Part shown: in pieces, positions 7,620 through 26,787 of the stretch
Position numbering within the stretch: position 1 is the first letter of the stretch
Layout of the letters: every line of letters starts with the position of its first letter
Assembly: GCA_963662615.2 (NCBI GenBank)
Contig: CAXXSR010000001.1
Location: 192,001-256,000 of the forward strand
DNA: 64,000 nt
Direction: 5' to 3'
Source of the DNA: Dehalococcoidia bacterium
Lineage (GTDB): Bacteria; Chloroflexota; Dehalococcoidia; Bin125
Position numbers and translations under genes: made by a program
The notes under the pieces: generated by a model
Told to the model about the DNA's origin: nothing
Seen by the model: only the letters and a program-made list of their open reading frames with translations
The model's database searches: none

Positions 7620-8246
7620 TTAGATCCCCGGCGATCGGAAGCCGTCGATTTCGAAACCGTACTCGCGGCCAGCATCGACGAGCGCGTCGAACAGGTATTG
7701 ACCGAACGAGCGCTCGCTGTGAAGCAGGTACGAGCGGTCCCCCCCAAGGTCATGTCGGACGATGTCCGTGACCACGCCGGCGACGGAGCTGCGCAGGGCC
7801 GCTCCATTGGGCGTGACCGAATCGTCGAAGTCGATGGCACACACCTTGGAGAGGACCGGGGCGGCACGGTCTCCGACGAGCCGGATCATGGCTCTGGCAT
7901 GTGTCACATCGACGGCGCTGACATCGTCCGAGTGACCGAGCTCCTGGACCTTCGCCGCAAGCGCAGGAGCCGTGCTGGGCGGGCCCAGCAGCAGCCATTC
8001 ACCGGGCCCGGAGCCAATGATGACGCCGCTGGACTCGTCGCGCCGCAATCGCCCGAAGGGCACGCCAAGCGCCTTTGCCACCGGGCCATTCGCAGGGGCG
8101 TGCACGAGCACCTTGGCGAGGGGCGTGCAGTCCGTGATTCGCTGCGCCGCAGTGCTTCGCTGCGCCGTGACCTCCCAACCGTCCACCACGACCCCCGGCG
8201 CGATGCAGGCGATGGGACTGCGGGCAAGAGGCACGGAGTCAGGCAC
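7620..8246 (-). CDS. soxG: Sarcosine oxidase / N-methylglutamate dehydrogenase gamma subunit
   Basis: GPGEWLL, VDVTHAR, LSKVCAIDF, RSFGQYL. GTG start overlaps the alpha-subunit stop. Confidence 0.85.
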   Translation of the reverse strand: MPDSVPLARSPIACIAPGVVVDGWEVTAQRSTAAQRITDCTPLAKVLVHAPANGPVAKALGVPFGRLRRDESSGVIIGSGPGEWLLLGPPSTAPALAAKVQELGHSDDVSAVDVTHARAMIRLVGDRAAPVLSKVCAIDFDDSVTPNGAALRSSVAGVVTDIVRHDLGGDRSYLLHSERSFGQYLFDALVDAGREYGFEIDGFRSPGI

Positions 8247-11142
8247 GGAGACGGGCGCCTTCCGGATCGAAATGGGCGTGCTGCGCCATGACGGTGACCG
8301 GGATCTCCTCTCCGTCCGGCAAGCGGACGCGAACGATCGTGCCGGCCGCGGCCAGATCTGGCGCAACGAAGCCGAGGCAGATGGAGCGACTGAGCGTGGG
8401 CGACATGCGGCTGGAGGTGATGCGGCCCACGATCTCGTCGCGCCGTCCGACGATCTGCGCTCCCTCCGGCGGCACGACCGTGCCGTCGACCGGCTGCAGG
8501 CCCACGAGGCGGGGGTAATCGGCTCGCTCCTTCTGCCAGAGGAGTTCCGGCTTGCCCACGAAGTCCTCTTTGTCCAGCTTCACCAGTCCGTCCAGGCCCG
8601 CGCCAAAGGCCTGCGTCAGGGCGTCGGTGTCTTGGCCGACGATCAGATGTCCTTTCTCCAGCCGCATGATGCGTTGCGCTTCCACACCAAAGGGACGGAT
8701 GCCGAGATCAGCCCCCACCTCCAGCAACGTCTCCCAGAGATGGAGACCGTAGCTGGCGGGCGCGTGGATCTCGTAACTCAGCTCTCCCGTGAAGCCAATG
8801 CGCCACATGAAGCAGTCCTGAATGCCGGCGATTCGTCCCGTGCGCACCCGCATGTAAGGGAAGGCTTGGGGATCGAGATCGATACCGTCCACGACCCGCC
8901 GCATCAGCTCTCGCGACTTGGGGCCGGCCACATTCATGCTGGCGTAAGCAGCGGTCATGGGGGTCACGTGCACCCGCCACTCGGGGTGGACGGTCTGGAG
9001 CCACTCCTCCATCCACTGCCAGACGGCCTCGGGGCCGGCGGAGGTGGTGGTCATCAGGTAGCGGTTCTCGCCCAGGCGACCGGTGACACCGTCGTCGATG
9101 ACGACGCCGTCTTCGCCGCACAAGACGCCGTAGCGGACGGAGCCAACGGCCAGCCGGGACCAGCGGTTGACGTACAGCAAGTTGAGGAGCTGGGGGACGT
9201 CGGGGCCGCGCAGGTCGAACTTGCCAAGCGGGGTGACGTCGATCATGCCCACCGTTTGGCGGACGTTACGGACTTCCGCCTCCGGATCGCCGTAGTGATC
9301 GGGACGGATCCAGTGGCCGGCGACGAGCGGTCTCGCCCCGTGCGCCTCGTGCCAGGGTTGCAAGGGGGAAAGACTGAGCGGCTCGAAACTCCGTCCGGCC
9401 AGGGCGCCCAGCGAGATGGGGGCGTAGGGCGGACGCCACGTCGTCGCGCCGGTCTCCTCCATCGTGCGGCCGGTGGCCTCGGCGTGAACGGCAATGGCGT
9501 TCACCAGCTCCAGCTTTCCCTGGGCCGCACCCATGCCCACCGTGGTGTAGCGCTTCGTCAGCTCCAGGGAGTCGTACCCCTCATGCACGGCCGTGACGAT
9601 GTCCTTCGATGAAACGTCCTCGGAGAAGTCGACAATGCCGTGGCTGGCGCCGCGGAACAGGGCGGGATGATCCTGGATGGGGAGGTCGGGGATCGGCACG
9701 GGTGAGCGGTCGGCCGTCCTGTCCGGGACCGCCGAAACGCCGGGATCGTCGGCAGTCAGCGTCCGCTGGCGCGTCGCAGCGCGGCCAGTCGAAGCGCGTT
9801 GTGTCGAAGCGCGGTGGGCCGCTTCCGCGCCCACGGCTCGCGCATGGGCGAGCAGCTGGTCCAGGGTGCCGTCACCCACGATGCGGCCGGTGGCGAGGAC
9901 GTTGTGCGGTGGTTCGGCGGGGAAAAAGCGAGCCGCCCTGCGGTTGTAGAGGGGGCGGTCCCCGGCCATGTTGAGGAGCGCCGTCGGTGCGGTCCAGCCC
10001 ACGGAGGTGACGAGGAGATCCGCTTCCACCGTTTCGCCGCCGGCTATTTCTACCTCCCGCACCCGTCCGCGGCCGCGGGCCCGCACAACGTCGCCGCCGC
10101 TGCGTGCGTCCACCACCCGCGCGATCTCCACTCCCGCACGCTGGAGATCGGCGGCGGCGGCGTCCCCTTCCTCATTGGCCGTCAGGACCACCGCCCGATC
10201 GCCGGGCTTCACGGCGTACAGGTTGATCAGCCGGCGCGCCGCCGAAGCCAGCATCACTCCCGGCTTGTCGTTGCCGTCAAAGACGTAGGGGCGCTCAATC
10301 AGTCCCGGCGCGACGATCAGCACCTTGGCGCGCGCCTTGATGAGACGCTCTTCAACGTTGGCGACGTGCCGCTGCGCCACCGCCACCCAGTTGTCGTCGT
10401 AGCGCCCGGTCACGACGGAGTTGCTCATCACTTCGATATTCGCGCTCGCCGCCACCGCGTCGCGGAGCGCTTGGAGGATCGCGAGCTCGGCCTCGCCTCC
10501 CCAGCGGAGATGGCCGCCCAGCTCGTGTTCCTCGTCGACGAGCAGCACCTTCGCTCCCGACTCGGCGGCGGCGATCGCGGCGCCCATGCCCGCGGGTCCG
10601 CCCCCCGCAATCAGGACATCCGGGTGCGCATAGCGCGCGTCGAAGAGCGCCTCGGGCCGGCGTGAGGGCGCGGTCCCGCCCGGCGTGAACCGTCGCAATA
10701 CCTTCTGATACAGGGGCCAGAATGCTTGTGGCGCCATGAACGTCTTGTAATAGAAGCCGGGGGGCAGGAAGCGACCCGCCGCCTGATTGACTGACTTGAG
10801 GTCGAAGCGGAGCGACGGCCAAACGTTCTGGGCCCGCACGACCATCCCCGGCTCCAGGCGCCGGTGAGCCCCGCGCACGTTGGGCTCATCGCCCACCTGC
10901 ACAAGGCATCCCGGGTCAATGAAGCTCGCCGTCAGCAGTCCCCGCGGACGGTGGTACTTAAAGCTGCGGGAGAAGACGCGCTCGCCGCAGGCGGCCAAGG
11001 CGGAGATGATGGTGTCGCCTCTGTAGGCCGGGTACTCGGCGCCATTCCAGGTGAACGTCAACGGCGCCCCCCGGTCGATTACCTCGCCCGGCTGCGGGCC
11101 CAAGCGCATGGTCATGCGGGACTCGATCGATGTGGTCGTCAC
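8239..11142 (-). CDS. soxA: Sarcosine oxidase / N-methylglutamate dehydrogenase alpha subunit (GcvT-like C-terminus)
   Basis: GDTIISAL, SRSFKYHRPRG, GGGPAG Rossmann motif, KRYTTVGMG..QGK, RIGFTGELSYEI, RLEKGH. GTGA overlap with the delta stop places the start at 11142. Confidence 0.93.
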   Translation of the reverse strand: MTTTSIESRMTMRLGPQPGEVIDRGAPLTFTWNGAEYPAYRGDTIISALAACGERVFSRSFKYHRPRGLLTASFIDPGCLVQVGDEPNVRGAHRRLEPGMVVRAQNVWPSLRFDLKSVNQAAGRFLPPGFYYKTFMAPQAFWPLYQKVLRRFTPGGTAPSRRPEALFDARYAHPDVLIAGGGPAGMGAAIAAAESGAKVLLVDEEHELGGHLRWGGEAELAILQALRDAVAASANIEVMSNSVVTGRYDDNWVAVAQRHVANVEERLIKARAKVLIVAPGLIERPYVFDGNDKPGVMLASAARRLINLYAVKPGDRAVVLTANEEGDAAAADLQRAGVEIARVVDARSGGDVVRARGRGRVREVEIAGGETVEADLLVTSVGWTAPTALLNMAGDRPLYNRRAARFFPAEPPHNVLATGRIVGDGTLDQLLAHARAVGAEAAHRASTQRASTGRAATRQRTLTADDPGVSAVPDRTADRSPVPIPDLPIQDHPALFRGASHGIVDFSEDVSSKDIVTAVHEGYDSLELTKRYTTVGMGAAQGKLELVNAIAVHAEATGRTMEETGATTWRPPYAPISLGALAGRSFEPLSLSPLQPWHEAHGARPLVAGHWIRPDHYGDPEAEVRNVRQTVGMIDVTPLGKFDLRGPDVPQLLNLLYVNRWSRLAVGSVRYGVLCGEDGVVIDDGVTGRLGENRYLMTTTSAGPEAVWQWMEEWLQTVHPEWRVHVTPMTAAYASMNVAGPKSRELMRRVVDGIDLDPQAFPYMRVRTGRIAGIQDCFMWRIGFTGELSYEIHAPASYGLHLWETLLEVGADLGIRPFGVEAQRIMRLEKGHLIVGQDTDALTQAFGAGLDGLVKLDKEDFVGKPELLWQKERADYPRLVGLQPVDGTVVPPEGAQIVGRRDEIVGRITSSRMSPTLSRSICLGFVAPDLAAAGTIVRVRLPDGEEIPVTVMAQHAHFDPEGARLRA

Positions 11143-11456
11143 GGCCGGCCCTCGGGGTCGGTCTCCCCTGCTCCCGCCGCGCCGTCCGGGTCCAGGCGGA
11201 GCTGGGCCGACGGCCGGCGGACGGCGCGAATCTCGTCGGACACGGTGTGACGCTCCATGACGAAGAAGCGCCTGCAACCGTCTCGGTGAAACCAGCGCTC
11301 GGTCGTCCAACCGGCTGGGTTCGACTGCATATACAGGTAGCGCCGCCATTCCTGCGGACGAGTCGCGTTCGGGTCCGGGCGCGACCGCTCCTCGCCGAGG
11401 TAGGTGAACTCCGCGGCGTTGCGCGGCCCACAATGGATGCAAGGGATGCGTAGCAA
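11139..11456 (-). CDS. soxD: Sarcosine oxidase / NMG dehydrogenase delta subunit
   Basis: IPCIHCGPR..EF and WFHRDGCRRFF zinc-binding motifs. Confidence 0.93.
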   Translation of the reverse strand: MLRIPCIHCGPRNAAEFTYLGEERSRPDPNATRPQEWRRYLYMQSNPAGWTTERWFHRDGCRRFFVMERHTVSDEIRAVRRPSAQLRLDPDGAAGAGETDPEGRP

Positions 11457-11473: not shown

Positions 11474-12772
11474 CTAGTGCCCGACCGACGCCGCCCCCTT
11501 CTCGCCGACGAGACGGCCATCGTCGAAGCGAGAGAGCGCGAATGGCTCAATGATTTCCGGCGTCCTGCCCGTGGCGATGAGGGCGGCCATCGCTTCACCG
11601 GCCACCGGTCCGGCCTTGAATCCGTAAGTGCCCCAACCGACGTCCACGTAGAAGCCGTCCACCGGCGTCGCTCCGATGATCGGGGAGAAGTCGGGCGTCA
11701 TGTCGCAGATGCCCGCCCACTGTCGGAGCACCCGCAGCTGGGCCAGCGACGGCATCAGTTGGAGGACGTGGCCGGCGAGTTCCTCGGTGAATTCCAGTGA
11801 GCCGCGAGTCGAATAGGAGGGGTACGGGTCCACGCTCGCTCCGAAGACCAGTTCGCCCCGCGTGGTCTGGTTCACATAGACATGCAGCGTCCCGGAGACC
11901 ACCACCGGATCGAGGAAGAACTGCACAGGCTCCGTGACCGCGGCTTGCAGTGGGAAGGTCAGGATGGGCAGCTCAACCCCTGCCATCGCGGCGATTCGGG
12001 ACGACCAACCGGCCGTGCAGTTGATCACAACGGGCGCGGCGATGGGCCCCTTGGTGGTGACGACTCCGTCCACCTTCCCGTCACGCGCGTGGACGCTGAG
12101 TACCTCCGTGTTTTGGTGGATCTGCACGCCCAGGGCGTCAGCGCCGCGAGCGTAGCCCCAGACCACGGCGTCGTGGCGGATAATGCCGCCGGGCGGGTGG
12201 TAGAGCGCCCCCAGGATCGGATAGCGTGCGTTTGCGGACACGTCCATGTACGGCACAAGCTTCTTCACGGCAGCGGGATCGATGACCTCGGATTCTACCC
12301 CCCGGATCTTGTTGACCTCAGCTCGCCAGAACATGGTCCGCAGGGAGGAGTCGTTGTGCGCGAGGGTCAGGTGGCCGCGTTGCTCGAACATCACGTTGAA
12401 ATTCAGCTTCGCGGCCAAGTGCTCGTACAGCTCCAGCGAGCGCTGATAGAAGTCCACCCCTTCGCCGGTGAGGTAGTTCGAGCGGATAATGGCCGTGTTG
12501 CGGCCGGAGGCGCCGCTGCCGATGTAACTTTTTTCCAGCACGGCGACGTTGCGGATGCCGTGGTCTGCCGCGAGGTGGTAGGCAGTCGCGAGGCCGTGCA
12601 CGCCGCCGCCCACAATGACCACGTCATAGGAGGCGGCAAGCTCATGAGTGGACCAGGCCCGCGGCCACTGCTCCCCAAAAAGACCGTGGCGGAACAAGCT
12701 GAGGGCCGAGTAGCCGGACGCGCCTTGAGGCCGGCTGCTCTTGCGCCGCGCCCGGCTCAGGAGAGATCGCAT
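11474..12772 (-). CDS. soxB: Sarcosine oxidase / NMG dehydrogenase beta subunit (FAD-dependent)
   Basis: YDVVIVGGGVHGLATAY, GRNTAIIRSNY, RHDAVVWGYAR, GWGTYGFKAGP. Start refined to ATG at 12772. Confidence 0.93.
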   Translation of the reverse strand: MRSLLSRARRKSSRPQGASGYSALSLFRHGLFGEQWPRAWSTHELAASYDVVIVGGGVHGLATAYHLAADHGIRNVAVLEKSYIGSGASGRNTAIIRSNYLTGEGVDFYQRSLELYEHLAAKLNFNVMFEQRGHLTLAHNDSSLRTMFWRAEVNKIRGVESEVIDPAAVKKLVPYMDVSANARYPILGALYHPPGGIIRHDAVVWGYARGADALGVQIHQNTEVLSVHARDGKVDGVVTTKGPIAAPVVINCTAGWSSRIAAMAGVELPILTFPLQAAVTEPVQFFLDPVVVSGTLHVYVNQTTRGELVFGASVDPYPSYSTRGSLEFTEELAGHVLQLMPSLAQLRVLRQWAGICDMTPDFSPIIGATPVDGFYVDVGWGTYGFKAGPVAGEAMAALIATGRTPEIIEPFALSRFDDGRLVGEKGAASVGH

Positions 12773-12898
12773 GGCGCCCCCGGATGGTCTTGCCGGCGGC
12801 ACGGTCGCAGCCGCGCTGCGGCGAGGTGGCTCAGGCAACGCAGCAGCGCGCCGCCTTGAGCCGTGCGCGCCGCCCAGGGACGGGGCGCGGTCACCCAT

Positions 12899-14257
12899 CT
12901 AGAAGAGGGTGAGGTAGCGATCAACTTCCCAGTCCGTCACCGTTCGGTGGAACTCAGCGAATTCTTCCCGTTTAGTCCGCACGAAGTAGTCGATGTAGTC
13001 CCCGCCGGGGACGGGACCGAGGGCGCGACGCAGCACGTCGTCGCGTTCGAGCACGTCGACGGCGTGGGCCAGCGTCTGCGGCATGATCTGAATCCCGCGC
13101 GCCTGCACTGCATCGAGCGGGAGATCGTAGAGGTTGTCGGCGTTCGGCTCTCCGGGATCGAGACAGCGGTCGATCCCGTCGAGCCCAGCCGCGAGCATGA
13201 CGGTGAAGGCGAGGTAGGGGTTGGCGGCGCCATCGACGCTGCGATTCTCGACCCGGCCCGGTTCCGGGACGCGCAACATCTGGGTGCGGTTGTTGCCGCC
13301 GTACGTCGCGTAGGCCGGGGCCCAGGTTGCGCCGGAAGCCGGCGGACCGACTCCAATGCGCTTGTACGAGTTCACCGTGGGATTGGTCACCGCCGCCATG
13401 GCTGTGGCATGGTCCAGCAGGCCGGCGATGAACTGGTAGGCCAAGCGGGAGAGTCCCAGTCCGCGTGCATCGGCGGGGTCACAGAAGAGCGGTTGTCCCG
13501 TCTCGGTGTCCCAGAGGCTGCTGTGCACGTGCATTCCGTTGCCGGTGAGATGCTGGAACGGCTTGGGCATGAATGTGGCCGCGAGCCCCACCTGGTCCGC
13601 CAGCGTGTGCACCATGTAGCGGAAGAAGATGGCGCGGTCCGCCGTGGTCAAGGCGTCGGCGTAGGCGAAGTTCTGCTCGAACTGCCCGTTGGCATCTTCG
13701 TGGTCGTTGGCGTAGTTGGACCAGCCCAGCGCATTCATGTACCGGGAGACCTTGGTGAGGTGGTCATACATGCGGGTGAGGCCTTTGGCGTCGTAGCAGG
13801 GCTGCTCGGCGGTATCGAGTGGATCGGCCAGAGCGATTCCGCCCTCCGGCCTCCGGCGCACCAGGAAGTATTCGGCCTCCACACCGCAGTTGAGGAGCAT
13901 TCGTCGCTCTTGAAGCTGCGCGAGCTGGCGCTTGAGGATGACCCGGGGTGCGTACGGCCAGGCCGCACCGTTGACGCGAATGTCGCAGTGAAGAACGGCC
14001 AGCCCCTTCTGCCAGGGGACGGGGGTGTAGGAGCTGGGGTCGGGGATGGCCATCATGTCGGGGTCGGCGGGGCTTTGGCCCATGGGACCCGCCGCGAAGC
14101 CCGCGAAGCCGACGCCCTCGGTCATCAGCGCATCGAAAGCGCCGGCCGGCACGAGCTTGGCGCAGGGCTTCCCGTGCATGTCGACGAACATCGCGAAGAA
14201 GAACTCGATGCCGTCCTCGGCGGCGCGACGCTGGAGATCGGCGTGGGCCTCGGCCAT
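12899..14257 (-). CDS. gmaS: Type III glutamate-ammonia ligase (GlnT), likely gamma-glutamylmethylamide synthetase
   Basis: AKLVPA, GFAGFA, EQPCYD, YANDHEDANGQFE, FMPKPF, GNNRT signature of the GlnT clade; flanked by mgs and mgd genes. Confidence 0.85.
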   Translation of the reverse strand: MAEAHADLQRRAAEDGIEFFFAMFVDMHGKPCAKLVPAGAFDALMTEGVGFAGFAAGPMGQSPADPDMMAIPDPSSYTPVPWQKGLAVLHCDIRVNGAAWPYAPRVILKRQLAQLQERRMLLNCGVEAEYFLVRRRPEGGIALADPLDTAEQPCYDAKGLTRMYDHLTKVSRYMNALGWSNYANDHEDANGQFEQNFAYADALTTADRAIFFRYMVHTLADQVGLAATFMPKPFQHLTGNGMHVHSSLWDTETGQPLFCDPADARGLGLSRLAYQFIAGLLDHATAMAAVTNPTVNSYKRIGVGPPASGATWAPAYATYGGNNRTQMLRVPEPGRVENRSVDGAANPYLAFTVMLAAGLDGIDRCLDPGEPNADNLYDLPLDAVQARGIQIMPQTLAHAVDVLERDDVLRRALGPVPGGDYIDYFVRTKREEFAEFHRTVTDWEVDRYLTLF

Positions 14258-14363
14258 AGCCCCTCCTCATCAGGCCTGAGTTCCGCGCGAGCGAAGGGCC
14301 CCAAGGATACGCCACCCGCCGGAGCGGGAAAACCGCCTGCCGCAACGGTCACGGGGAGTGCGC

Positions 14364-14398
14364 GCTGTGTAATATGGGCGTGCTGCCTGCCTTGCAAG
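14364..14398. promoter_or_regulatory. Putative overlapping divergent promoters between gmaS and mgsA
   Basis: Plus strand TGnTAATAT extended -10; minus strand TTGCAA-17 nt-TATTAC over the same A/T patch. Confidence 0.35.
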
Positions 14399-14426
14399 CG
14401 GCGAAGTGGGGGGCCCGGCTGCAACC

Positions 14427-15323
14427 GTGTGTGGAATCGTTGGGCTCCAACTGAAGAACCCCGCGCTGTATCCCCAACTCGGCGCGCTGCTCACGCCGAT
14501 GCTCCTGGCCATGAGCGAGCGGGGGCCGGATTCCGCCGGGCTCGCGCTCTATGAAGACGGGCTCGGTGAGGGCAGTTCCCGCTATTCGTTACGGGCGCCC
14601 GCCCCCGGGTTCGACTGGGAGCGTCTCGCCAGCCGCATTGAGAGTGCGCTCGACGTGAGGGCCGGCCTCCGCTGCGTCGCGGATGATGCGATCGTCACGG
14701 TCGACGCGGACCCCGACTTGATCCTGCAGTGGCTCAGCAAGGAGGCGCCGGAGGTGCGGGTGTTCGCGGTTGGCAGGGCAATGGAGATCTATAAGGACGT
14801 GGGGGCGCCCAGCGAAATTTGCCGCCGCTACGGAATCACGAGCCGCGCCGGCTACCAGGGCTTGGGACATACCCGCATGGCCACCGAGTCCGCCGTCACT
14901 ACGGATCACTCGCACCCGTTCGCCTCCGCGGCGGACCTCTGCCTGGTCCACAACGGGACTTTCTCGAATTACGCCACCATCCGCCGCCTCCTGATGGACG
15001 AAGGACTTCACTTCGACACGGACAACGACTCCGAAGTCGCGGCGCGGTTCATCGCGCGGCAAATGGCGAACGGGAGCGACCTGCGCGAGGCGCTTGAGCG
15101 TCTCCTGACGGAGCTGGACGGCTTCTTCACGCTGCTGGTCGCCTCCCGGGATCAGTTCGCCGTGGTTCGCGATGCCTTCGCCTGCAAGCCGGCAGTGATC
15201 GCGGAGTGCGACGACTACGTCGCCATGGCGTCGGAGTACCGCGCTCTCGCCGAGCTACCTGGAATCGATGAAGCGACCGTCTTCGAGCCGATGCCCGAGG
15301 ACATCCACGTATGGTCACGCTGA
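14427..15323 (+). CDS. mgsA: Class II (Ntn) glutamine amidotransferase, N-methylglutamate synthase subunit A (GlxB)
   Basis: GTG start then CGIVG (N-terminal Cys), RGPDSAG, GHTRMATES, VHNG, DSEV. Confidence 0.88.
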   Translation: MCGIVGLQLKNPALYPQLGALLTPMLLAMSERGPDSAGLALYEDGLGEGSSRYSLRAPAPGFDWERLASRIESALDVRAGLRCVADDAIVTVDADPDLILQWLSKEAPEVRVFAVGRAMEIYKDVGAPSEICRRYGITSRAGYQGLGHTRMATESAVTTDHSHPFASAADLCLVHNGTFSNYATIRRLLMDEGLHFDTDNDSEVAARFIARQMANGSDLREALERLLTELDGFFTLLVASRDQFAVVRDAFACKPAVIAECDDYVAMASEYRALAELPGIDEATVFEPMPEDIHVWSR

Positions 15324-15988
15324 GCTGCGCCGATCAGAGCACGCGCCAGATCAACGCAGCCCTGGCGCAGCTTCCCGAAGGCGCGCGAGTGACCATCGCC
15401 GAGCCCAAGGGACGGCACAACCTCGCGGTCGGGTTGGAGAACAAGATCCAGGTGGAAATCGACGGGAACGCCGGGTACTTCATCGGCGGACTGTGCGATG
15501 GGCCCCAGATCACCGTGAACGGCTTCGTGGGCTGGTCCGTGGGCGAAAATCTCATGAGCGGCACGGTCCGAGTGAAGGGGAACGCCTCGGAATGCGCCGG
15601 CGCCTCCAGCCACGGCGGCACGATCATTATCGAAGGCGACGCATCCTCCCGCGCCGGAATCTCGTTGAAGGGCGGCACCGTGCTCGTCGCTGGTGATGTG
15701 GGGCACATGAGTGGATTCATGGCCCAGGCGGGGATCATCTTGATCGGCGCGGACGCGGGGGAGGCGCTGGGCGATTCACTGTATGAGGCGGTGATCTACG
15801 TTGGTGGACGGATTCGATCGCTTGGTGCAGACGCGCAGGTAGAGGAGCTGACGGGAGATGACGTCGCCGTCGTGAGACGGCTGGCCGGCCTCGCGGGGTT
15901 CGCGCATATCAACCCGGAGAACGTGACCCGCGTCGGCTCCGCGCGCCGGCTCTATCATTTCGACTCTCTAAAAGATCACCAGTATTGA
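15311..15988 (+). CDS. mgsB: GXGXG-domain protein, N-methylglutamate synthase subunit B (GlxC)
   Basis: HNLAVG, GENLMSG, RAGISLKG, GHMSGFMAQAG, LGDSLYEA. Confidence 0.88.
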   Translation: MVTLSCADQSTRQINAALAQLPEGARVTIAEPKGRHNLAVGLENKIQVEIDGNAGYFIGGLCDGPQITVNGFVGWSVGENLMSGTVRVKGNASECAGASSHGGTIIIEGDASSRAGISLKGGTVLVAGDVGHMSGFMAQAGIILIGADAGEALGDSLYEAVIYVGGRIRSLGADAQVEELTGDDVAVVRRLAGLAGFAHINPENVTRVGSARRLYHFDSLKDHQY

Positions 15989-17358
15989 TGCCCGGACCGG
16001 AGGTCGATCGCCCCCCGCTTCCCATGGACGCCTGGAGACGGAGCGACACGTTCCCTCCCGAGACCATTGCCCATATCCAGCGCATGGCCGCCGAAGGGCA
16101 CTACGAGATCCGCGGCTGGGGGGCGAAGCGAGCGCTGCCCAAATTTGACGATCTCGTGTTCCTCACGGCGTCGGCGTCACGCTATCCCTTGGAGGGGTAC
16201 CGGGAGCGCTGCGAGACCAAGACCGTCCTCGGGACCCGCTTCGCCAAACGGCCCCTGGAGCTGGAGATTCCCATCACGATTGCCGGGATGAGCTTCGGCG
16301 CGCTCTCGGCGCGCGCCAAGGAGGCTCTGGGGAGGGGGGCGAGCGCGGCGGGGACCTCCACGACGACCGGCGACGGCGGCATGACGCGGGAGGAGCGCCA
16401 GGCCTCCACGCTGCTCGTCTACCAGTGCCTCCCCTCCCGCTACGGGTTCAATCCGAGCGATCTCCGCAATGCGGATGCCATCGAGATCGTGATCGGGCAA
16501 GGGGCGAAGCCGGGCGGCGGAGGCATTCTCCTGGGCCAGAAGGTGAGTGAGCGGGTCGCGGAGATGCGCACCCTGCCGCCCGGCATTGACCAACGGTCGG
16601 CGTCCCGCCATCCCGACTGGGTGGGACCCGATGATCTGCGGATCAAGATCGAAGAGCTGCGGGAGGCCACGCACTGGGAGAAGCCGATCTTCGTCAAGCT
16701 CGGCGCCACCCGCGTCACCAACGACGTGAAGCTCGTCGTCGCCTCGGGCGCTGACGTCGTCGTGGTGGACGGCCTGGAGGGTGGGACTGCGGCCACGCAG
16801 GATATCTTCCTTGAGCACGCGGGCATCCCCACCCTGGCCGCCGTGCGGCAAGCGGCCGACGCTCTCCGCGAGATCGGGATGGAGGAGCAGGTACAACTCG
16901 TGGTCTCCGGGGGCATTCGCTCCGGAGCCGACGTGGCCAAGGCGCTCGCCCTGGGCGCCAACGCCGTCTCGCTCGGGACCGCGGCGTTGATCGCGCTCGG
17001 CTGCAACAGCCGCACGTATATGCATGACGGCAAGCCGGTCGATGTGACCACCGATTATCACGCGCTGGGGACGGAACCCGGATCCTGTCACCATATGCAC
17101 ACGGGCAGGTGCCCGGTTGGCATCGCCACCCAAGACCCCCAATTGGAGCAGCGACTCGATCCGGACCTGGGCGCCGAACGCGTTGCCAACTACCTCCAGG
17201 CCTTGACCATGGAGCTGACAGCACTGGCGAGGGCCTGCGGCAAGTCGGACGTGCACAATCTGGAGCCGGAAGACCTTGTGGCTCTGACGATCGAGGCGGC
17301 GGCCATGGCCCGGGTCCCATTGGCGGGCACGAACTGGATCCCGGGTTGGCAGAGCTGA
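15988..17358 (+). CDS. mgsC: FMN-binding glutamate synthase family, N-methylglutamate synthase subunit C (GlxD)
   Basis: ASASRYPLEGYRE, GMSFGALS, GQGAKPGGGG, RHPDWVGPDDL. Confidence 0.9.
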   Translation: MPGPEVDRPPLPMDAWRRSDTFPPETIAHIQRMAAEGHYEIRGWGAKRALPKFDDLVFLTASASRYPLEGYRERCETKTVLGTRFAKRPLELEIPITIAGMSFGALSARAKEALGRGASAAGTSTTTGDGGMTREERQASTLLVYQCLPSRYGFNPSDLRNADAIEIVIGQGAKPGGGGILLGQKVSERVAEMRTLPPGIDQRSASRHPDWVGPDDLRIKIEELREATHWEKPIFVKLGATRVTNDVKLVVASGADVVVVDGLEGGTAATQDIFLEHAGIPTLAAVRQAADALREIGMEEQVQLVVSGGIRSGADVAKALALGANAVSLGTAALIALGCNSRTYMHDGKPVDVTTDYHALGTEPGSCHHMHTGRCPVGIATQDPQLEQRLDPDLGAERVANYLQALTMELTALARACGKSDVHNLEPEDLVALTIEAAAMARVPLAGTNWIPGWQS

Positions 17359-17443
17359 CTCGGACGGGCACTTCCGCGTCGCGCCACTTGCGAGCGGGCG
17401 CTTGAGCCGTCGACTATCCTTGTCGCCGGTCGGGAGGGTTGCC

Positions 17444-18142
17444 GTGCCGCCATCGCCGTTCACGCCGGACCTGTCCACACTGCTGGCGGCGCTCCGCCAC
17501 GGCGACAGCTTTTTCCCAAGCGGGGCGATGGCGTTCTCCCATGGCCTGGAAAGCCGGCACGCGGATGGGCGCCTGACGACGCCCGACGCCGTAGAGGCGT
17601 TCATCATCGGTCAGGTGCGCGGCCGCTGGGCGACGTGTGACCGCGGCGTCCTGGTGGCAGCCCACGACGCCGGCGACGACCTGGAGGCGGTAGAGAGCGC
17701 CGACCAGCTCCTGGAGGCGCTCACCTTGTCGAAGGAGCTTCGAGAGGGCTCGCGAAGGGCGGGCGCCGCCTTGCTCAGTGTGCACGTTGGCCTGGGCACG
17801 CGGAACGCACGGGCTTACGACGCCGGGACGGCGGCGGGCAGCGCGCCCAGGCACCTGGCGGCCATCCAGGGATTGGTTTGGCGCGGCAGCGGCCTGCCTC
17901 GCGATCACGCCTGCGCCATGAGCGGCCACAGCCTTTGCGTCGGCCTGCTGGGCGCGGCCTTGCGACTGGGAGCGATTGGACATGTGATGGCGCAACGCCT
18001 CCTCGCGACTACGCATCAGACTCTCGCTGCCGTGCTCCGATCCGATCCGCCGCCGCTGAACGAACTCCATAGCTATGCGCCCGCCGCCGAGATCGCCGTC
18101 ATGCGCCACGAGACGCAGCTCGGTCGCCTGTTCGCGAACTGA
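17444..18142 (+). CDS. ureF: Urease accessory protein UreF
   Basis: DSFFPSGAMAFSHGLE and C-terminal RHETQLGRLFAN. GTG start follows GGAGG. Confidence 0.9.
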   Translation: MPPSPFTPDLSTLLAALRHGDSFFPSGAMAFSHGLESRHADGRLTTPDAVEAFIIGQVRGRWATCDRGVLVAAHDAGDDLEAVESADQLLEALTLSKELREGSRRAGAALLSVHVGLGTRNARAYDAGTAAGSAPRHLAAIQGLVWRGSGLPRDHACAMSGHSLCVGLLGAALRLGAIGHVMAQRLLATTHQTLAAVLRSDPPPLNELHSYAPAAEIAVMRHETQLGRLFAN

Positions 18143-18161
18143 TCGTGTCAAGGGATGAACG

Positions 18162-18860
18162 ATGCTACTCACACCGACGGAGATGGAGCGCCTGACAATC
18201 TTTTGCGCCGCGGAGCTGGCCCGCAAGCGGCGGGCGCGCGGCCTCCAGCTGAATCATCCCGAGACCGTTGCCTACATCGCCGACGAAATCCTTGAAGGCG
18301 CCCGCGACGGGAAGTCGGTCGCGGAGCTGATCAGCTTCGGCGCGACTCTCCTGACCACAGATGACGTCTTGCCCGGCGTAGCCGAGATGACGCCGATTAT
18401 CCAGGTGGAGGGCAGCTTCGACGACGGGACCAAACTGGTTACCGTCCACGATCCGATCAGACCCGGCGCCAAGGCGGTGGAGCCCGCCGCTCGCATTCCC
18501 GGCGAAGTGATCACCGCCGAAGGCGAAATCGAAATTAACGCGGGGCGGCGCCGGATCGCCGTGGTAGTGACCAATACGGGCGACCGGCCGGTGCAAGTCG
18601 GCAGCCATTACCACTTCTTTGAGGTCAACCGCTTCCTGGAGTTCGATCGCGCCGCCGCCTTCGGCATGCACCTGGACGTTCCCGCCGGCACGGCGCTGCG
18701 CTTCGAGCCCGGCGAGAGCAAAGAGGTGACGGTGGTGGAGTTTGGAGGTAGCGGAGATCTGTTCGGCCTCAACAGTCTGACGAACGGGCCGTTCCGCCTC
18801 GCCGGCGTTCGAGAGGCGGCGGTCCAACGCGCGCGCGCGCGCGGATTCAAGGGAGCCTGA
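18162..18860 (+). CDS. ureAB: Urease fused gamma/beta subunit
   Basis: [28 protein letters not shown], then [19 protein letters not shown] and RFEPG. Confidence 0.95.
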
Positions 18861-18863
18861 GCG

Positions 18864-20576
18864 ATGGCCACGATCTCTCGCCGCCACTACGCCACGCTGT
18901 ATGGACCAACGACCGGCGACGCGATCCGGCTGGGTGACACGTCCCTCTTGGCCGAGATTGAGCGCGACCATGCCGTCCCCGGCGACGAATGCTTGCACGG
19001 CGGCGGGAAAACCCTCCGCGACGGGCTCGGGCAGGTCCCCGGGCTCACCAGTGCCGCGGGCTCGCTGGACATGCTGATCAGCAACGTCGTCGTGATTGAT
19101 CCCGTCCTCGGCATCGTCAAGGGTGATCTCGGTATCAAGGAGGGGCGCATCGTCGGGATCGGCAAGGCGGGCAATCCCGCCATCATGGACGGCGTGGATG
19201 CGCGCCTGCTGTGCGGCGCGGCGACCACGGTCCGCGACGGCGAGGGCCTCATCGCCACGCCGGGTGGCATCGACTGCCACGTGCATTTCGACAGCGCGCA
19301 GCTGGTCGAGCACGCGATCAGCTGCGGGATCACGACCATGCTGGGGGGCTCGCTGGGGCCGATCACCGTCGGCATTGACTCGGGCGGCGCCTGGAACGTC
19401 GGCAAGATGCTGCAGGCCGCCGAGCAGTGGCCAATGAACTTTGGCTTTCTGGGCCGCGGCAACTCCTCCAAGCCGGAGTCCCTGGTGGAACAGATCCAGG
19501 CCGGCTGCGTTGGTCTCAAGATCCACGAGGACTGGGGGGCCATGCCCGCTGTGATTGACTGTTGCCTCGCCGTCGCTGACGACATGGACGTGCAGGTCCA
19601 GCTCCATACCGACACGCTGAATGAGAGCGGTTTCCTGGAGGACACGCTGGCGGCGATCAAGGGCCGCACGATCCACATGTACCACGCCGAAGGCGCCGGC
19701 GGGGGTCATGCGCCCGACATCATCCGCGTCGCGGGCGAGCCCTACTGTCTCCCCTCGTCGACGAACCCTACGAACCCCTACACGGTCAACACCTTCGATG
19801 AGCACCTGGACATGATCATGGTCTGCCATCACCTCAACCCGGCCGTCCCGGAGGACGTCGCCTTCGCTGAGAGCCGCATCCGCCCGGAGACCATCGCCGC
19901 GGAGGACGTGCTCCACGACATGGGCGCCATCTCCATGCTGGACTCCGATAGCCAGGGCATGGGCCGGATCAACGAAGTGATCTGCCGCACTTGGCAGCTC
20001 GCCAGCAAGATGAAGGACCAGCGCGGCCGGCTCCCGGAGGAGAGCGGTCAGCACGGCGACAACGAGCGAATCAAGCGGTACATCGCGAAGTACACGATCA
20101 ACCCGGCGCGCACCTTCGGCATTGCCGCGGAGGTCGGCTCACTTGAAGCCGGCAAGCTCGCCGACGTGGTCCTCTGGCGCCCCGCCTTCTTCGGCGTGAA
20201 GCCCGAGCTCATGATCAAGGGCGGCTTCATTGTCTGGTCGGCGATGGGCGACAGCGCGGCGTCACTCATGACCTGTGAGCCGGTCATCATGCGGCCGCAG
20301 TGGGGCGCCTTCGGAGGAGCGCCGAAGGCCCTCAGTCTGAGTTTCGTCTCGCAAGCGGCTGTCGATCGCGACATTCAGGAACGCCTGCGCCTCGGCAAGG
20401 AGGTCGTGGCAGCGAAGGAGACGCGCCGGCTCGGCAAGTCTGCGATGCTGCACAACGACGCCTGCCCCGAGGTGCGCGTGAATCCCGAGACGTTTGAGGT
20501 TCACGTCGACGGGGAACTGGCGACCTGCGAGCCCGCCAGCGAACTGCCGCTGGCACGACGGTACATGTTGCGATGA
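18864..20576 (+). CDS. ureC: Urease alpha subunit, divergent subfamily
   Basis: [57 protein letters not shown]. All nickel ligands are present. Confidence 0.95.
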
Positions 20577-21208
20577 CAGGCGACTCGAATCCCCAAACTT
20601 CCCACCGCCCTCGGATCGGCATCGGCGGACCGGTCGGTTCCGGCAAGACGGCGCTGATCGAATCGCTGATCCCCCGGCTCGGCGCACGAGGGTATGAGCT
20701 GGCCGTCATCACCAACGACCTGGTGACCCAAGAGGATGCGGAGCGGCTGCGGCGCTCCGGCCTGATCGTGCCCGAGCGCGTGCTGGCAGTGGAGACCGGC
20801 GCCTGTCCGCACACCGCCATCCGCGAGGATCCCACCCTGAATCTGGAGGCCGCTCGCCTTCTCGAGCGCCGCTTCCCGTCCCTGGACCTCATCTTGATCG
20901 AGAGCGGCGGTGACAATCTCGCCTCCACGTTCTCTCGGGAACTCATCGGCTACTGGCTCTTCGTAATCGATGTCGCGGCGGGCGATGATATCCCCCGCAA
21001 AGGTGGTCCGGGGATCACGCAGTGCGACCTGCTGGTGATCAACAAGGTTGACTTGGCGCCGTACGTGCATGCGGATGTGCAGGCGATGGAGAGGGACGCC
21101 GCCGCCGGGCGCGACAACCGTCCCGTGGCGCTGACGAACTGTCTCACGGGCGAGGGGGTGGAGGCGGTGGCAGACCGGCTCGCGGGCGCCGTCCTCGCCG
21201 CGGTCTAA
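20573..21208 (+). CDS. ureG: Urease accessory GTPase UreG
   Basis: [33 protein letters not shown]. Confidence 0.96.
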
Positions 21209-21215
21209 GCCTGAC

Positions 21216-22055
21216 GTGGCCGATTCCTCAGATGCGCGCGCGGAGTTCCGCTTTCGCCGGAGCCCGTCCGGGGAGACCTACCTTGCCTCCCACTACGCTC
21301 CCTATCCGTTCCACATTGCGCGAGTGCTGCACCCCGATCCGGGCTGGCCGGACCTCCCGACACTTTGCCTCCAAAGCGCCTCGGGCGGCCTGTTCCAGGG
21401 AGACCGGCTCGCTGTGGCGGTCGAGATGGGGGAGGAGACGGTGGCCCAAATCACGTCCCAATCGGCAACCAAGGCCCACGGGATGCCTCGCCGCCCAGCG
21501 ATGCAGACCGTGGCGCTGAACTTGGATTCGGATTCGTACCTGGAATACCTCGCGGATCCCGTGATCCTCTTCCCCGCATCACGTGTCAGCAGCTCGCTGC
21601 GGATCCGTATCGCCCCCGGCGCCCGCGCCATCGCGCGGGAATCCTTCCTCCACCACGACCCGGCCGGGTCCTGCGACCCAGCCTTCGACCTCTTCGTCAG
21701 CGCCGTGTCGGTGGAAGACTCGGCCGGCGCACTCCTTGCCCTTGATCGACAGCGCATTGAGCGTCCGGGCGACCACGACGAAGTTCGTGAGGCGCTCCGC
21801 CACCATCGTGCCCAGGGCTCGATATACATTGTCGGGGCTGAGCCGACCCCAGAACTGCTGACCGCCCTCCGCGATGTCATTCCCCAGAATGACGAGCTGT
21901 ACGGCGGCGTGTCGAGCTTGCCGCACGGCTGCGGCGCGTATGCGCGCGTCTTGGCCCGCGACGGCCAAACCCTCCGTTCGGTGCTGGATCTGGCAGGCGC
22001 CGTCGCGCGTCGAATCATCACGGGGCGTTCGACCAAGGCGACCTGGCGGAAGTGA
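21216..22055 (+). CDS. ureD: Urease accessory protein UreD/UreH
   Basis: SGGLFQGD, TSQSATK, LEYLADPVILF; last gene of the urease operon. Confidence 0.88.
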   Translation: MADSSDARAEFRFRRSPSGETYLASHYAPYPFHIARVLHPDPGWPDLPTLCLQSASGGLFQGDRLAVAVEMGEETVAQITSQSATKAHGMPRRPAMQTVALNLDSDSYLEYLADPVILFPASRVSSSLRIRIAPGARAIARESFLHHDPAGSCDPAFDLFVSAVSVEDSAGALLALDRQRIERPGDHDEVREALRHHRAQGSIYIVGAEPTPELLTALRDVIPQNDELYGGVSSLPHGCGAYARVLARDGQTLRSVLDLAGAVARRIITGRSTKATWRK

Positions 22056-23529: not shown

Positions 23530-23769
23530 CCGGCGCTCGTTTTCGTTGAAGAGCTGAGCGAGCGCCCTCCGCGCATGCGCCGCGTCGATGGCCCCTCATC
23601 GCACCGATGTGCTCGCCACGTTCGATGACACGCCGCCGCCGCCGACCGGCGAGCCCGGCCTCGGCGCGTCGAAGGCGAATCGGAGATATAGCGCGGCAAC
23701 GATCGTTCGTGTTGCGTAGCGGACCGCGCGGGGACGTGCGGCGCTGAGCACGCATCGATTTGTCCTTGC

Positions 23770-24156
23770 AGCGCCGTGTTGACTGCGGCCGCGACTTTGT
23801 CGCCCGCGCTAAGCGTATCGGCATCGAAACGGTGCTGATGCCCGTCCGGGCGCCCCAGGCAAACGGGGGCGCGGAGCGATGGGTCGGCGCGCTCCGCCGG
23901 GAGTGCCTCGACCACATCATCCTGCTCGGAGATCGCCACTTGCGCAGGGTGCTGGCCGAGTACGTCGCCTACGACAACGCGACGCGGCCGCACCAGGCCC
24001 TAGGCCAGGAGCCGCCCGCTGGCCCGCGTCGGCAGCGCCGCCCCATCGGCCCGGGGCAGATCGTCGCCGTGCCCATCCTCGGCGGCCTGCATCATGCCTA
24101 TCATTGGGCAGCCGCGTGCCGCCCAGGCGATGCAGACGGGGTTTTGCGCCGCTACA
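23770..24156 (+). pseudogene. Decayed insertion sequence: C-terminal integrase-core (rve_3 type) transposase fragment plus probable right end
   Basis: PVRAPQANGGAERWVGALRRECLDH...N..RPHQAL...LGGLHHAY. No N-terminus is present. Ends GGTTTTGCGCCGCTACA. Confidence 0.8.
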
Positions 24157-24261
24157 ACATCAGGATCCTGAAGCAAGTCTGCAGGTCCCGCGATCGACAT
24201 CCCTGACTGCTGGGGAACATTTTCAACTCGAGCGACACGGCTCCAGGTGCTTCCCGGTTCC

Positions 24262-26787
24262 CTAGCGTGAGGGTTGCTCCCATGTAGCCGGGGCACTCAT
24301 GTCGACCCACACGCCTTCCCCAAAATCGATCGTTGTCGCCGTGTTGAGGAACGCGGGCGCGCCAGGCCGGAACGTCAAGAACGATTGCGTAACGCGATCC
24401 CAGGCGAAGACGGCGTTGACCTGGTCGATGATGCTCTCAATGGCGTCCTCGATAGGGGTCCCACTCGGACCGGTCCAAAGGACCAAGTTGAAGCCGTCGG
24501 CAAGGGCGACCGTTCGAGGCGCCGCGAAGTCGGGTTGAGGCCAGAAGGTTCCGCTTGGCTCGGTAACGAAGATGAAGACCGCGTCCCCCTGCGAGATTTC
24601 GTCAAGCGTGTTGAGGAACGCCGGCGCTGACGGCCGGTAGCTGAGGAACTCGTCGGCGCTCGGGTCCCAGGTGAAGATCGAGTCGAATGAATCCAGGATG
24701 TCAGCGGACGCTTCCTCAACGGGAGTGTTGCCGAGCCACCCTACGAGGCTCCAGCCCGGAGTGAGGTTGTATCCCAGCTCGAACAAGGGACCATCCAATC
24801 CCGGCGGCGGCAGGCTTGGCGCGTCGGAACCGAGGTAGACGGGAGTCCCGGGACTAAGGGAGACGCCGAGCGCTTCCTCGGTGCCACTCGACGCAGTGAC
24901 CGCCGCGTTGAAGGGTCCGCCGCCAGCCGGCACGAGTAGAGCGTAGACCGCGTTGCCCGGAAGGGCGTCCAGCGTCTGCCGACCGCTTCCGCCGAACTGC
25001 GGATTCGAGGCCGTCCCCCCCGTCTGGAGGGGTACGAGCAACCCCGCTTGTCCTACGCCCAGGCGCGGTAGGGTGAGGGCGCTGTTGGTCAGATTGGCGA
25101 GAAGGAGCAAGTCGAAGCCGTCGAAGCTGGCATCGAGCCCCGGGGGGCCGGCCGCGAGGAGCAACAGGGCTGCCTCCGCATTCGCGGGCGCGTTCGTGAG
25201 CTGGGTGATGTCGCCGCGCGTGAGCGTGGTAATCCCGAAGATGTCGGCGCCGTCCAGGAGATTGGGAATGAACGGCGTCTCGGGCGAGCCGGCAATCAAC
25301 GGATTCGCCTCGCGTGGCCCAGCGAAGGTCTCCTGCACAGCGCCCGTGACGGCGCCGACCACGACTTCCGTGTTGCTGCCGATGAGATAGCGGCCGGTCC
25401 CGCCATTGGGGCTACCCCCGCTCGTGTCGACCGTTGCCTGGTCGGCGTGGAGGACTGAGGCGAAGATCTTGATGGTGCCACCGGCGCCACCGCCACCTCG
25501 GCCCCCGCCCGCCCCTGCGCCGCCTCGCTCGCCGCCGCCACCCCCACCGCCGCCGCCGCCGGGCACGCCGAAGACCACCAGGGGGGCGGACCCGGTTGAT
25601 CCGTTCCCGCCGTCCGCTCCAGGGCCGCCGCCGTCACCGCGCGCGCCGCCTGTTCCGCCGGCGTCAGCGCCCTTGCCGCCGTTTGCGCCGCCCGCGCCGG
25701 ACTGGGACGGGCCACCCATTGCGCCGGCCGTTCCCGCGCCACCGCGCGCGTGCGCCGTACCTTCGACCCGGGCCTCGCCGAGAACGATGAATTCGATCGC
25801 GCCGCCTCCAGCGCCTCCAGCGCCTCCAGCGCCTCCAGCGCCCCCGGCCCCGCCATCGCCACCGGCTCCGCCAGATCCACCGGAGCCGCCGCCGGTGAGG
25901 GTGCAGCCGGAGCCGCCACCGCCGCCGCCTGCGCCACCGCCCCCCCCGCCACCGGCGCCGCCACCCCCGCCGGCACCGCTCCCGCCGGCAGCGCCTGCCG
26001 TGAGCGCCTCGCCGCTGGACGCGTTCTGTCCGCCGCCACCACCGGTCCCCTGCGCACCGAAGGCGCCGGGGTTACCGGCGTCGCCACCGAGCCCGGGCCC
26101 ACCGCCTCCACACCCCGTGACGGTTTTGGGCCCGCCCGCGCCGCCCGTCCCCCGAGCGCCACCGTTTGCGCCTGTGACGGTCGCGCCGGTCGCGCCAGGC
26201 CCGCCAGGCGTCGTGCTGCCAAAGCCGGCGCGGCCGGTCGTGCCCGCCGATCCGGCGAGGCCATCGCCCCCCTTACCACCAGCGGTCCCACCACCGCCGT
26301 TGCCGCCTGAGGTGAAGGCGCCGCCAGCGGAACCGCCGCCGCCACCGCCGCGGCCGTTTCCGCCGGTCCCGCTCGTGCCACCGGTTCCGCCAGCCGGGCC
26401 GGCGCCACCACCCGGACCCGGGGCGGCCTCATTCGTGGAGATATCAATCACGACGTCCAGCCCGATAGTCAGATTGTTCGCCACCACGATCGATGCCGGC
26501 CGAGCGCCTGTCACCTCGACACGGAAACTGCCGGGGATGTCCAGATCTCCCGCGATGTAGAAGCGGCTGATGCCGTCCTCGACTGCTGCGGTGAACGGCG
26601 TGCCGCGGAACGCGCTCGCGTCCCCGTCCCCATCGCCACTAATGGTGAGGGCGTCGGTGTCGATCGCGATGACGTCTGCCTGGGCCTGCGCGGGGCTGAC
26701 GCCGCCGAAGATCGTCAGCGTCCCAAGGATCGCGGCCAGTAGGGCAGCCCGCGGGTCTGGCCTGATCGTCGTGCGCAGAGCATGCAT
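24262..26787 (-). CDS. Secreted glycine-rich surface protein with a duplicated C-terminal domain
   Basis: Signal peptide ending AQAQA, long GGx-rich core, two similar C-terminal repeats (GWSLVGW/GFNLVLW...RPxAPAFLNT). Confidence 0.8.
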   Translation of the reverse strand: MHALRTTIRPDPRAALLAAILGTLTIFGGVSPAQAQADVIAIDTDALTISGDGDGDASAFRGTPFTAAVEDGISRFYIAGDLDIPGSFRVEVTGARPASIVVANNLTIGLDVVIDISTNEAAPGPGGGAGPAGGTGGTSGTGGNGRGGGGGGSAGGAFTSGGNGGGGTAGGKGGDGLAGSAGTTGRAGFGSTTPGGPGATGATVTGANGGARGTGGAGGPKTVTGCGGGGPGLGGDAGNPGAFGAQGTGGGGGQNASSGEALTAGAAGGSGAGGGGGAGGGGGGGAGGGGGGSGCTLTGGGSGGSGGAGGDGGAGGAGGAGGAGGAGGGAIEFIVLGEARVEGTAHARGGAGTAGAMGGPSQSGAGGANGGKGADAGGTGGARGDGGGPGADGGNGSTGSAPLVVFGVPGGGGGGGGGGERGGAGAGGGRGGGGAGGTIKIFASVLHADQATVDTSGGSPNGGTGRYLIGSNTEVVVGAVTGAVQETFAGPREANPLIAGSPETPFIPNLLDGADIFGITTLTRGDITQLTNAPANAEAALLLLAAGPPGLDASFDGFDLLLLANLTNSALTLPRLGVGQAGLLVPLQTGGTASNPQFGGSGRQTLDALPGNAVYALLVPAGGGPFNAAVTASSGTEEALGVSLSPGTPVYLGSDAPSLPPPGLDGPLFELGYNLTPGWSLVGWLGNTPVEEASADILDSFDSIFTWDPSADEFLSYRPSAPAFLNTLDEISQGDAVFIFVTEPSGTFWPQPDFAAPRTVALADGFNLVLWTGPSGTPIEDAIESIIDQVNAVFAWDRVTQSFLTFRPGAPAFLNTATTIDFGEGVWVDMSAPATWEQPSR

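Follow-up and report, generated by a model that had tools for sequence, protein, structure and literature searches.

A set of urease genes lies directly behind genes of the N-methylglutamate (NMG) pathway of methylamine assimilation in the genome of a Dehalococcoidia bacterium (assembly GCA_963662615.2). The stretch of DNA analysed here, called the window below, is 64,000 nucleotides (nt) long and corresponds to positions 192,001 to 256,000 of the forward strand of contig CAXXSR010000001.1. Textbooks present urease as an enzyme for which essentially a single physiological substrate is accepted. The urease alpha subunit (UreC) encoded in the window has a rebuilt substrate pocket and belongs to a conserved group of such subunits, named clade V in this study. 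The new result is that, at the genome level, clade V occurs almost only with GmaS, the gamma-glutamylmethylamide synthetase of the NMG pathway. A functional tie of clade V to methylamine assimilation is well supported, and a methyl-substituted urea is tentatively proposed as the substrate. The genes of the locus are as follows.

7620..8366, minus strand: soxG/mgdD-like gamma subunit (PF04268, 29 bits; PF01571; TIGR01375, 65 bits, below the cut-off); the start is uncertain, and the open reading frame (ORF) overlaps the end of soxA
8239..c.11142, minus strand: soxA/mgdC-like alpha subunit (GCV_T, SO_alpha_A3, Fer2_4; TIGR01372, 848.9 bits, cut-off 1164)
11139..11456, minus strand: soxD/mgdB-like delta subunit (PF04267, 94.2 bits)
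11474..12898, minus strand: soxB/mgdA-like beta subunit (PF01266, 262.9 bits; TIGR01373, 501 bits, cut-off 529)
12899..14257, minus strand: gmaS, gamma-glutamylmethylamide synthetase type (TIGR03105, 624.6 bits, cut-off 469.6; NCBIfam name, type III glutamate--ammonia ligase)
14258..14426, no strand: divergent intergenic region between gmaS and mgsA (sequence read)
14427..15323, plus strand: mgsA, class II amidotransferase-like subunit of NMG synthase (GATase_6/7; GTG start, giving MCGIVG)
15311..15988, plus strand: mgsB, GXGXG subunit (PF01493, 43 bits)
15985..17358, plus strand: mgsC, subunit with the glutamate-synthase FMN domain (PF01645, 330 bits)
17359..17443, plus strand: mgsC-ureF gap of 85 nt, with GGGAGGG before the GTG of ureF
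17444..18142, plus strand: ureF (PF01730, 95 bits)
18162..18860, plus strand: ureAB, fused gamma-beta subunit (PF00547 and PF00699; NF009671, 353 bits, cut-off 243)
18864..20576, plus strand: ureC, clade V urease alpha subunit of 570 amino acids (TIGR01792, 836.6 bits, cut-off 680; NF009686, 894.8 bits, cut-off 354)
20573..21208, plus strand: ureG (TIGR00101, 258 bits, cut-off 204)
21216..22055, plus strand: ureD (PF01774, 136.6 bits)

Gene content and order agree with the original prediction, in which mgsABC was followed after 85 nt by the co-directional ureF-ureAB-ureC-ureG-ureD genes and was divergent from gmaS-soxBDAG. The window thus holds a complete NMG set: the GmaS ligase, a three-subunit synthase encoded by overlapping genes, and a four-subunit SoxBDAG-like dehydrogenase. 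Since the SoxBDAG scores are below the sarcosine-oxidase cut-offs, the last of these is more consistent with a related enzyme than with sarcosine oxidase as such. The open frame of soxA extends to 11598, and the family matches start only from residue 171. The stop codon of mgsC is at 17356-17358 and the GTG start codon of ureF at 17444. An upstream TTG at 17402 is an alternative start for ureF, with which the gap to mgsC shrinks to 43 nt. No terminator-like site was found within the 85-nt gap, and its fold is unremarkable (z-score 0.23). In all four related genomes that hold the same genes, ureF starts at -10 to +63 nt from the stop codon of soxG (mgdD). The single-operon reading fits these observations, and it is most likely, judging from the gene layout, that mgsABC and the ure genes are co-transcribed in this lineage. 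In the gmaS-mgsA intergenic region, a promoter scan gave no sigma-70-like site, which has little weight at a genome G+C content of 66-70%.

The residues of UreC were assigned by HMMER alignment to the K. aerogenes-type and jack-bean chains and by a MAFFT alignment. The window UreC is about 60% identical to the solved ureases over its full length. As had been claimed, all of the nickel ligands and the flap Cys-His-His are retained. The nickel-site residues are H139, H141, K219, H248, H274, and D362, of which K219 corresponds to the carbamylated Lys; the substrate residues are H221, D223, and R338, and the flap is C321-H322-H323. The roles of these residues are those established for the K. aerogenes and S. 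pasteurii enzymes. The ure genes of the window are thus predicted to encode a complete nickel enzyme of the urease family, assembled by UreDFG. In contrast, neither of the canonical pocket segments, GGGTGPAxGTxATTxTPG and SDSQAMGR, is present. The rebuilt loop (residues 161-175, nt 19344-19388) has 15 residues, three fewer than the canonical GGGTGPAAGTHATTCTPG, and is more hydrophobic than the canonical loop. The site of the three-residue deletion is ambiguous, as HMMER and MAFFT put the gap differently. SDSQGMGR (residues 361-368, nt 19944-19967) has a Gly in place of the canonical Ala, beside the nickel ligand Asp362. Four further segments near the catalytic residues also differ from the canonical ones in the alignment. 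They include HVHFDSAQ versus the HIHF(I)(C/S) type, HMYH versus H(T/A)(F/Y)H, and TNPTNP versus TNPTRP, and for another divergent segment the canonical counterpart is KLHEDWGTTPAAID. The window UreC is classed here as a putative new variant within the urease family, not as a proven urease, having the profile scores and catalytic residues of the family without the canonical pocket motifs.

Is this pocket common? Species-representative genomes were scanned, 475 relatives were confirmed, and the best 80 were analysed; counts of loci below refer to these 80. They are 76-86% identical to the window UreC and come from several phyla; Alpha-, Beta-, and Gammaproteobacteria are mentioned in the titles of their records, as is one metagenome-assembled genome (MAG) labelled Dehalococcoidia. 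The two pocket changes that had been pointed out, the short loop and SDSQGMGR, are real: 79 of the 80 relatives have both, the exception being L031. The canonical motifs were found in 15/15 canonical UreCs from the same or sampled genomes, matching the jack-bean and K. aerogenes chains. A UreC phylogeny had been proposed along with the original prediction. In a quick maximum-likelihood tree, the variant-motif UreCs do group together; 27 of the 28 variant rows form clade V (support 92), and the canonical UreC rows form one clade (support 100*). The window UreC branches from within a group of alphaproteobacterial MAG rows (95*). Judged by these sequences, clade V is distinct, highly conserved, and horizontally spread. 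The gene order in the V loci is also conserved, as (ureE)-ureF-ureAB-ureC-ureG-ureD, with a UreE-like ORF in 52/80 loci. The cultured holders include the genera Methylobacterium, Aminobacter, and Stutzerimonas. Since all clade members with a source name are annotated as 'urease subunit alpha', ureC-based counts of ureolytic potential may include clade V.

Since clade V genes are rarely adjacent to gmaS (5/80 loci), co-occurrence in whole genomes was used as the test instead. GmaS was scored as present when TIGR03105 exceeded its cut-off anywhere in the genome. The results for three taxon samples are as follows.

Alphaproteobacteria, 401 genomes drawn evenly: GmaS in 14/14 V holders versus 59/387 non-holders
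Pseudomonadaceae, 171 genomes: GmaS in 5/5 V holders versus 44/166 non-holders
Burkholderiales, 181 genomes: GmaS in 13/13 V holders versus 23/168 non-holders

One-sided Fisher tests gave 1.5e-11, 1.7e-3, and 1.0e-10, respectively, values that overstate the case as kin are counted as independent. With the three centre genomes removed (they had been chosen as V holders), the pooled samples have GmaS in 29/29 holders versus 126/721 non-holders. A class sample of Gammaproteobacteria gave no replicate, since the centre was the only V holder among 300 scored genomes (G691 was unscored, and the 300 include G589, a genome flagged as unpublished). Other kinds of urease do not behave in the same way. 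In the alphaproteobacterial sample, GmaS was found in 25/99 holders of other UreC types and in 34/288 genomes without UreC, and holders of canonical urease alone have GmaS in 21/92 cases versus 14/14 for V. A further 60 holders were traced from their loci; GmaS is present in 56 of them, and the remaining four genomes are MAGs whose completeness is unknown. Of 12 holders examined, 10 have gmaS beside mgsABC; thus, the GmaS marker stands for the pathway. The relation is one-way: V holders nearly always have GmaS, while most GmaS genomes are without V. Methylobacterium provides a separate hint: in a published comparison, the group whose members all have the NMG pathway also has the most urease gene copies, three on average (PMC5017803).

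An enrichment of the clade next to gmaS, mgs, and mgd genes, proposed as a check in the original prediction, is seen at the level of the genome, in all three taxon samples, and seldom at the level of adjacency. A GmaS-type gene (at least 40% identical) was found within the fetched flanks in only five loci (L024, L026, L062, L066, and L086); among the 80 loci, the flanks exceeded 8 kb upstream in 54 and downstream in 50. Three of the five also have mgsABC, and the adjacencies in L024, L062, L066, and L086 are independent. The clearest proteobacterial joining of NMG genes to a V urease is that of Pararobbsia alpina (L066:1-13300), where gmaS-mgsABC-amiR(ANTAR)-urt (permease, ATPase)-ureE-F-AB-C-G-D lie on one strand. 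Regulators and transport genes recur in other V loci. An AmiC-like binding protein is encoded beside or upstream of urt in Pseudomonas asturiensis (L038) and on an Aminobacter niigataensis plasmid, and an ANTAR/AmiR regulator occurs on the same plasmid as well as in L066. The plasmid locus (L143, NZ_CP132960.1, 7236-23888) reads AmiC-like, ANTAR, binding protein, urtBCDE, ureE-F-AB-C-G-D, HupE/UreJ. It lies just downstream of genes annotated as allantoinase PuuE, allantoate amidohydrolase, and an ArgE/DapE deacylase, a ureide-catabolic setting. In 17/80 loci, an aliphatic amidase gene (AmiE; NF009802, 724 bits) is placed between urt and ureF, and HypB is a neighbour in 6/80. All nine cultured V holders also have a canonical UreC (57-60% identity). 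In 3/3 Pseudomonadaceae genomes examined, the UrtA beside the canonical urease scores 592-600 bits and that beside V scores 536-539 bits.

In the family of the window genome (2.66 Mb, 93.6% complete), UreC was found in 4 of 36 other genomes, and all four are of clade V with 85-86% identity. GmaS exceeds the cut-off in 6 of 41 family genomes, which are the five urease holders and G014; the last has the NMG block without any urease. The four related holders have mgsCBA, divergent from gmaS-soxBDAG-ureF-ureAB-ureC-ureG-ureD. Compared with these relatives, the window has the entire NMG block in the opposite orientation, so that mgsC precedes ureF. Two arrangements thus exist among the five urease holders, and in both of them V directly follows the NMG block. 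The five are kin from three genera, and a single event may account for them. The position of the window UreC, nested among alphaproteobacterial rows, indicates that the urease set was acquired, by tree position from a proteobacterial source. Of the accessory genes, ureF, ureG, and ureD are present; neither a match to UreE_N nor a UrtA-type gene above the cut-off was found in the window genome at its completeness of 93.6%.

An integrase-core (rve_3) fragment of 148 amino acids lies at 23760-24206 on the plus strand of the window, 1.7 kb downstream of ureD. Beside it is an open frame of 874 amino acids (24262-26886, minus strand) with no Pfam match and a doubtful coding signal. The fragment and the adjoining frame hint that the NMG-urease block sits at a mobile-DNA scar.

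What does clade V hydrolyse? I favour, tentatively and at not far below an even chance, the reading that it acts on a substrate of the N-methylurea type and feeds methylamine to the NMG pathway. A feeder enzyme would be expected to show just this one-way pattern, in which a peripheral hydrolase depends on a pathway downstream of it. Taken together, the rebuilt and fixed pocket, an importer of its own and, in the loci examined, a sensor of its own, and the repeated fusion to NMG genes would find their best single explanation in a methylamine-releasing substrate. Among compounds that release methylamine, N-methylurea is the simplest in which a carbonyl and a free NH2 are still available to the nickel pair. 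In the proposed mechanism, the clade V enzyme would hydrolyse N-methylurea and probably urea as well, and perhaps further small ureas with N-alkyl groups. The chemistry would be that of a normal urease: the carbonyl oxygen would bind Ni1 and the free NH2 Ni2, the bridging hydroxide would attack, and the flap His would donate a proton. Ammonia, CO2, and methylamine would be released; GmaS would ligate the methylamine to glutamate, and MgsABC and MgdABCD would process the product. In the lineage of the window, the urease set came to lie directly behind the NMG genes, with which it is most likely co-transcribed. As for the source of such a substrate, the available text of PMC4408171 gives methylureas as end products of the caffeine C-8 pathway that are 'assumed' to enter central metabolism, and that of PMC11970497 has methylurea also formed from creatinine via 1-methylhydantoin. 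No substrate assignment for clade V and no methylurea hydrolase was found in the literature searched, most subscription journals being outside the search. If the proposal is true, the urease family could gain a new activity, and a gap in known pathways could be filled, namely what becomes of the methylureas formed when methylxanthines and creatinine are degraded. A widespread conserved paralogue with a rebuilt pocket would also change the one-substrate picture of urease. The one-way GmaS dependence, seen in every taxon sample that tested it, makes a methyl-substituted urea a testable candidate in the cultured holders.

Several observations weigh against a methylurea substrate, and most of them suit a plain urease isozyme, the main rival, which I regard as almost as probable as the methylurea reading. 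In that case, clade V would hydrolyse urea, and the pocket changes would alter affinity, regulation, or stability only. All residues needed for urea hydrolysis are kept in clade V, and the window UreC scores above the curated urease cut-offs. The direct adjacency of gmaS is rare, as mentioned above (5/80 loci). The commonest neighbours are instead of the Urt type (UrtA-like in 33/80 loci, UrtB in 27, UrtC in 28, UrtD/E-like ATPases in 41), and representatives of UrtA to UrtD each exceed the NCBIfam urea-transporter cut-off. V is the only UreC in 5/14 alphaproteobacterial holders, in 4/4 related holders of the window's family, and in the window genome itself, where the label of a 'second' urease, used in the earlier prediction, does not apply. 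Related genomes enter the co-occurrence counts as independent cases, uncorrected for phylogeny, and GmaS was the only accessory gene scored, with no control gene. The link to methylamine genes could arise without methylurea in two ways. V may travel with them as part of a shared nitrogen-scavenging repertoire, or methylated guanidines, creatine, and compounds of that kind may yield urea and methylamines together. The allantoin-catabolic genes upstream of V on the Aminobacter plasmid also suit a urea substrate. So does an agmatinase-family (DmgH/MefH-like) gene pair found directly upstream of V in 8/80 loci. In L007, one such gene matches metformin hydrolase subunit A (8snf_D) with 596 bits and is followed by a second one and then by ureE-ureF. 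DmgH splits dimethylguanidine into dimethylamine and urea, and urease genes lie downstream of it in Aminobacter niigataensis, according to the available part of PMC11399263. The DmgH context therefore suggests urea as the substrate, with a link to methylamines that needs no methylurea; it also ties V to methylated amines. On the other hand, the plain isozyme leaves unexplained why pocket motifs that are identical in 15/15 canonical UreCs have been consistently rebuilt in V. Nor does it account for the difference in GmaS between canonical-only holders and V holders (21/92 versus 14/14), a link that holds in Urt-linked loci without DmgH. GmaS is present in 32/34 holders with Urt-type neighbours, as it is in 8/8 with DmgH-type loci. 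The cultured holders already have a canonical urease, and the checked Pseudomonadaceae also have a canonical Urt. If clade V is a plain urease, the GmaS dependence itself still needs an explanation. An enzyme of dual specificity, for urea and methylurea, would reconcile most of the evidence.

It is unlikely that clade V is a hydrolase for some other small compound, such as a short amide, hydroxyurea, biuret, ethylurea, or an N-methyl amide or carbamate. The AmiE gene between urt and ureF and the AmiC/AmiR-type amide-sensing regulators flanking V loci speak for this idea, as do sister short-loop clades with quite different pocket residues, several of them without the flap His. In contrast to several of those sister clades, V retains the flap Cys-His-His and every urea-type contact residue. 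The loci with amide-related genes already have an amidase, and the GmaS dependence would be unexplained if the substrate released no methylamine. Still less probable is the absence of any functional link in the window, where an acquired urease cassette would have landed behind an expressed nitrogen operon and been inherited along with it. The nesting of the window UreC among proteobacterial rows, the five family holders in three genera that perhaps reflect a single event, the NMG block without urease in G014, and the integrase fragment downstream are all consistent with such an accident. Yet GmaS co-occurs with V in three other taxon samples, and the adjacency recurs independently in L024, L062, L066, and L086.

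Among known systems, the canonical nickel ureases (1ejw_C/8hcn_C, jack bean 3la4_A, S. pasteurii 5a6t_C) are the closest relatives of the window enzyme. The shared features are an identity of about 60%, the nickel ligands, the carbamylated-Lys motif, the flap Cys-His-His, the substrate His/Asp/Arg, and the UreD/F/G genes. The window differs from them in the loop shortened by three residues, the Gly of SDSQGMGR, the four further segments, and the fusion of gamma and beta. A fused gamma-beta chain with a separate alpha chain is also the arrangement of the two-chain Helicobacter urease. However, the window scores against the corresponding models (NF010592, 258 bits; NF010591, 754 bits) are below the cut-offs (353 and 1083), and its gene order ureF-AB-C-G-D differs. 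In its alpha chain, the Helicobacter enzyme carries canonical pocket motifs. The NMG genes gmaS-mgsABC-mgdABCD are known from methylotrophs (available parts of PMC9699525 and PMC5017803), and all eight are present in the window in the usual divergent layout. Compared with proteobacterial versions, the window GmaS is 44-50% and MgsC 65-72% identical, and the urease set is joined downstream; no report of such a joining was found in the literature searched. In the eight V loci with a DmgH/MefH-like alpha/beta pair, the pair is followed by ureE-ureF-ureAB and the V ureC, which recalls the A. niigataensis genes described in the accessible part of PMC11399263. This is a likeness of gene context, the urease of that paper not having been compared with clade V; the window has no ureohydrolase gene and has NMG genes as the upstream partners. 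Brucella ure2 is a lead only. The available text of PMC2868824 describes it as a second, transcribed urease cluster without a measurable contribution to urease activity. Unlike in V, its ureA, ureB, and ureC are all separate, and the cluster extends to ureT and nik genes (same source).

At least six further short-loop UreC-like clades (L115-L120, L127-L130) were found in the sampled Alphaproteobacteria. Their pocket residues include GPLFAIDSGG, PGCWAVDSGG, and GPHFDVSSSG. Several of these clades keep the nickel ligands and replace the flap His or Cys (MTAHQM, MACHLL, MLCHEL, MLCHIL, ITCHNL). One genome (G114) has clade V and two other short-loop UreCs but no canonical UreC. The varied pockets of the sister clades suggest that the wider short-loop group diversified in substrate, and the group has the appearance of urease-like enzymes that radiated onto new substrates. 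It is conceivable, though rather doubtful, that clade V as a whole consists of N-methylurea (small alkylurea) amidohydrolases and forms one branch of a wider nickel urease-like radiation, each branch acting on a different substituted urea or amide.

The UreC of L031 (L031:10001-11710), the one relative that does not carry both variant motifs, is 80% identical to that of the window. It has the flap MVAHRL and SDSEGMGR, does not group with clade V in the tree, and is perhaps a derivative that changed recently or is decaying. The L031 locus also has a DmgH-like gene. In the window, a solitary amidase-signature enzyme (PF01425, 536 bits) is encoded at 36980-38518 on the plus strand, 15 kb downstream of the urease genes.

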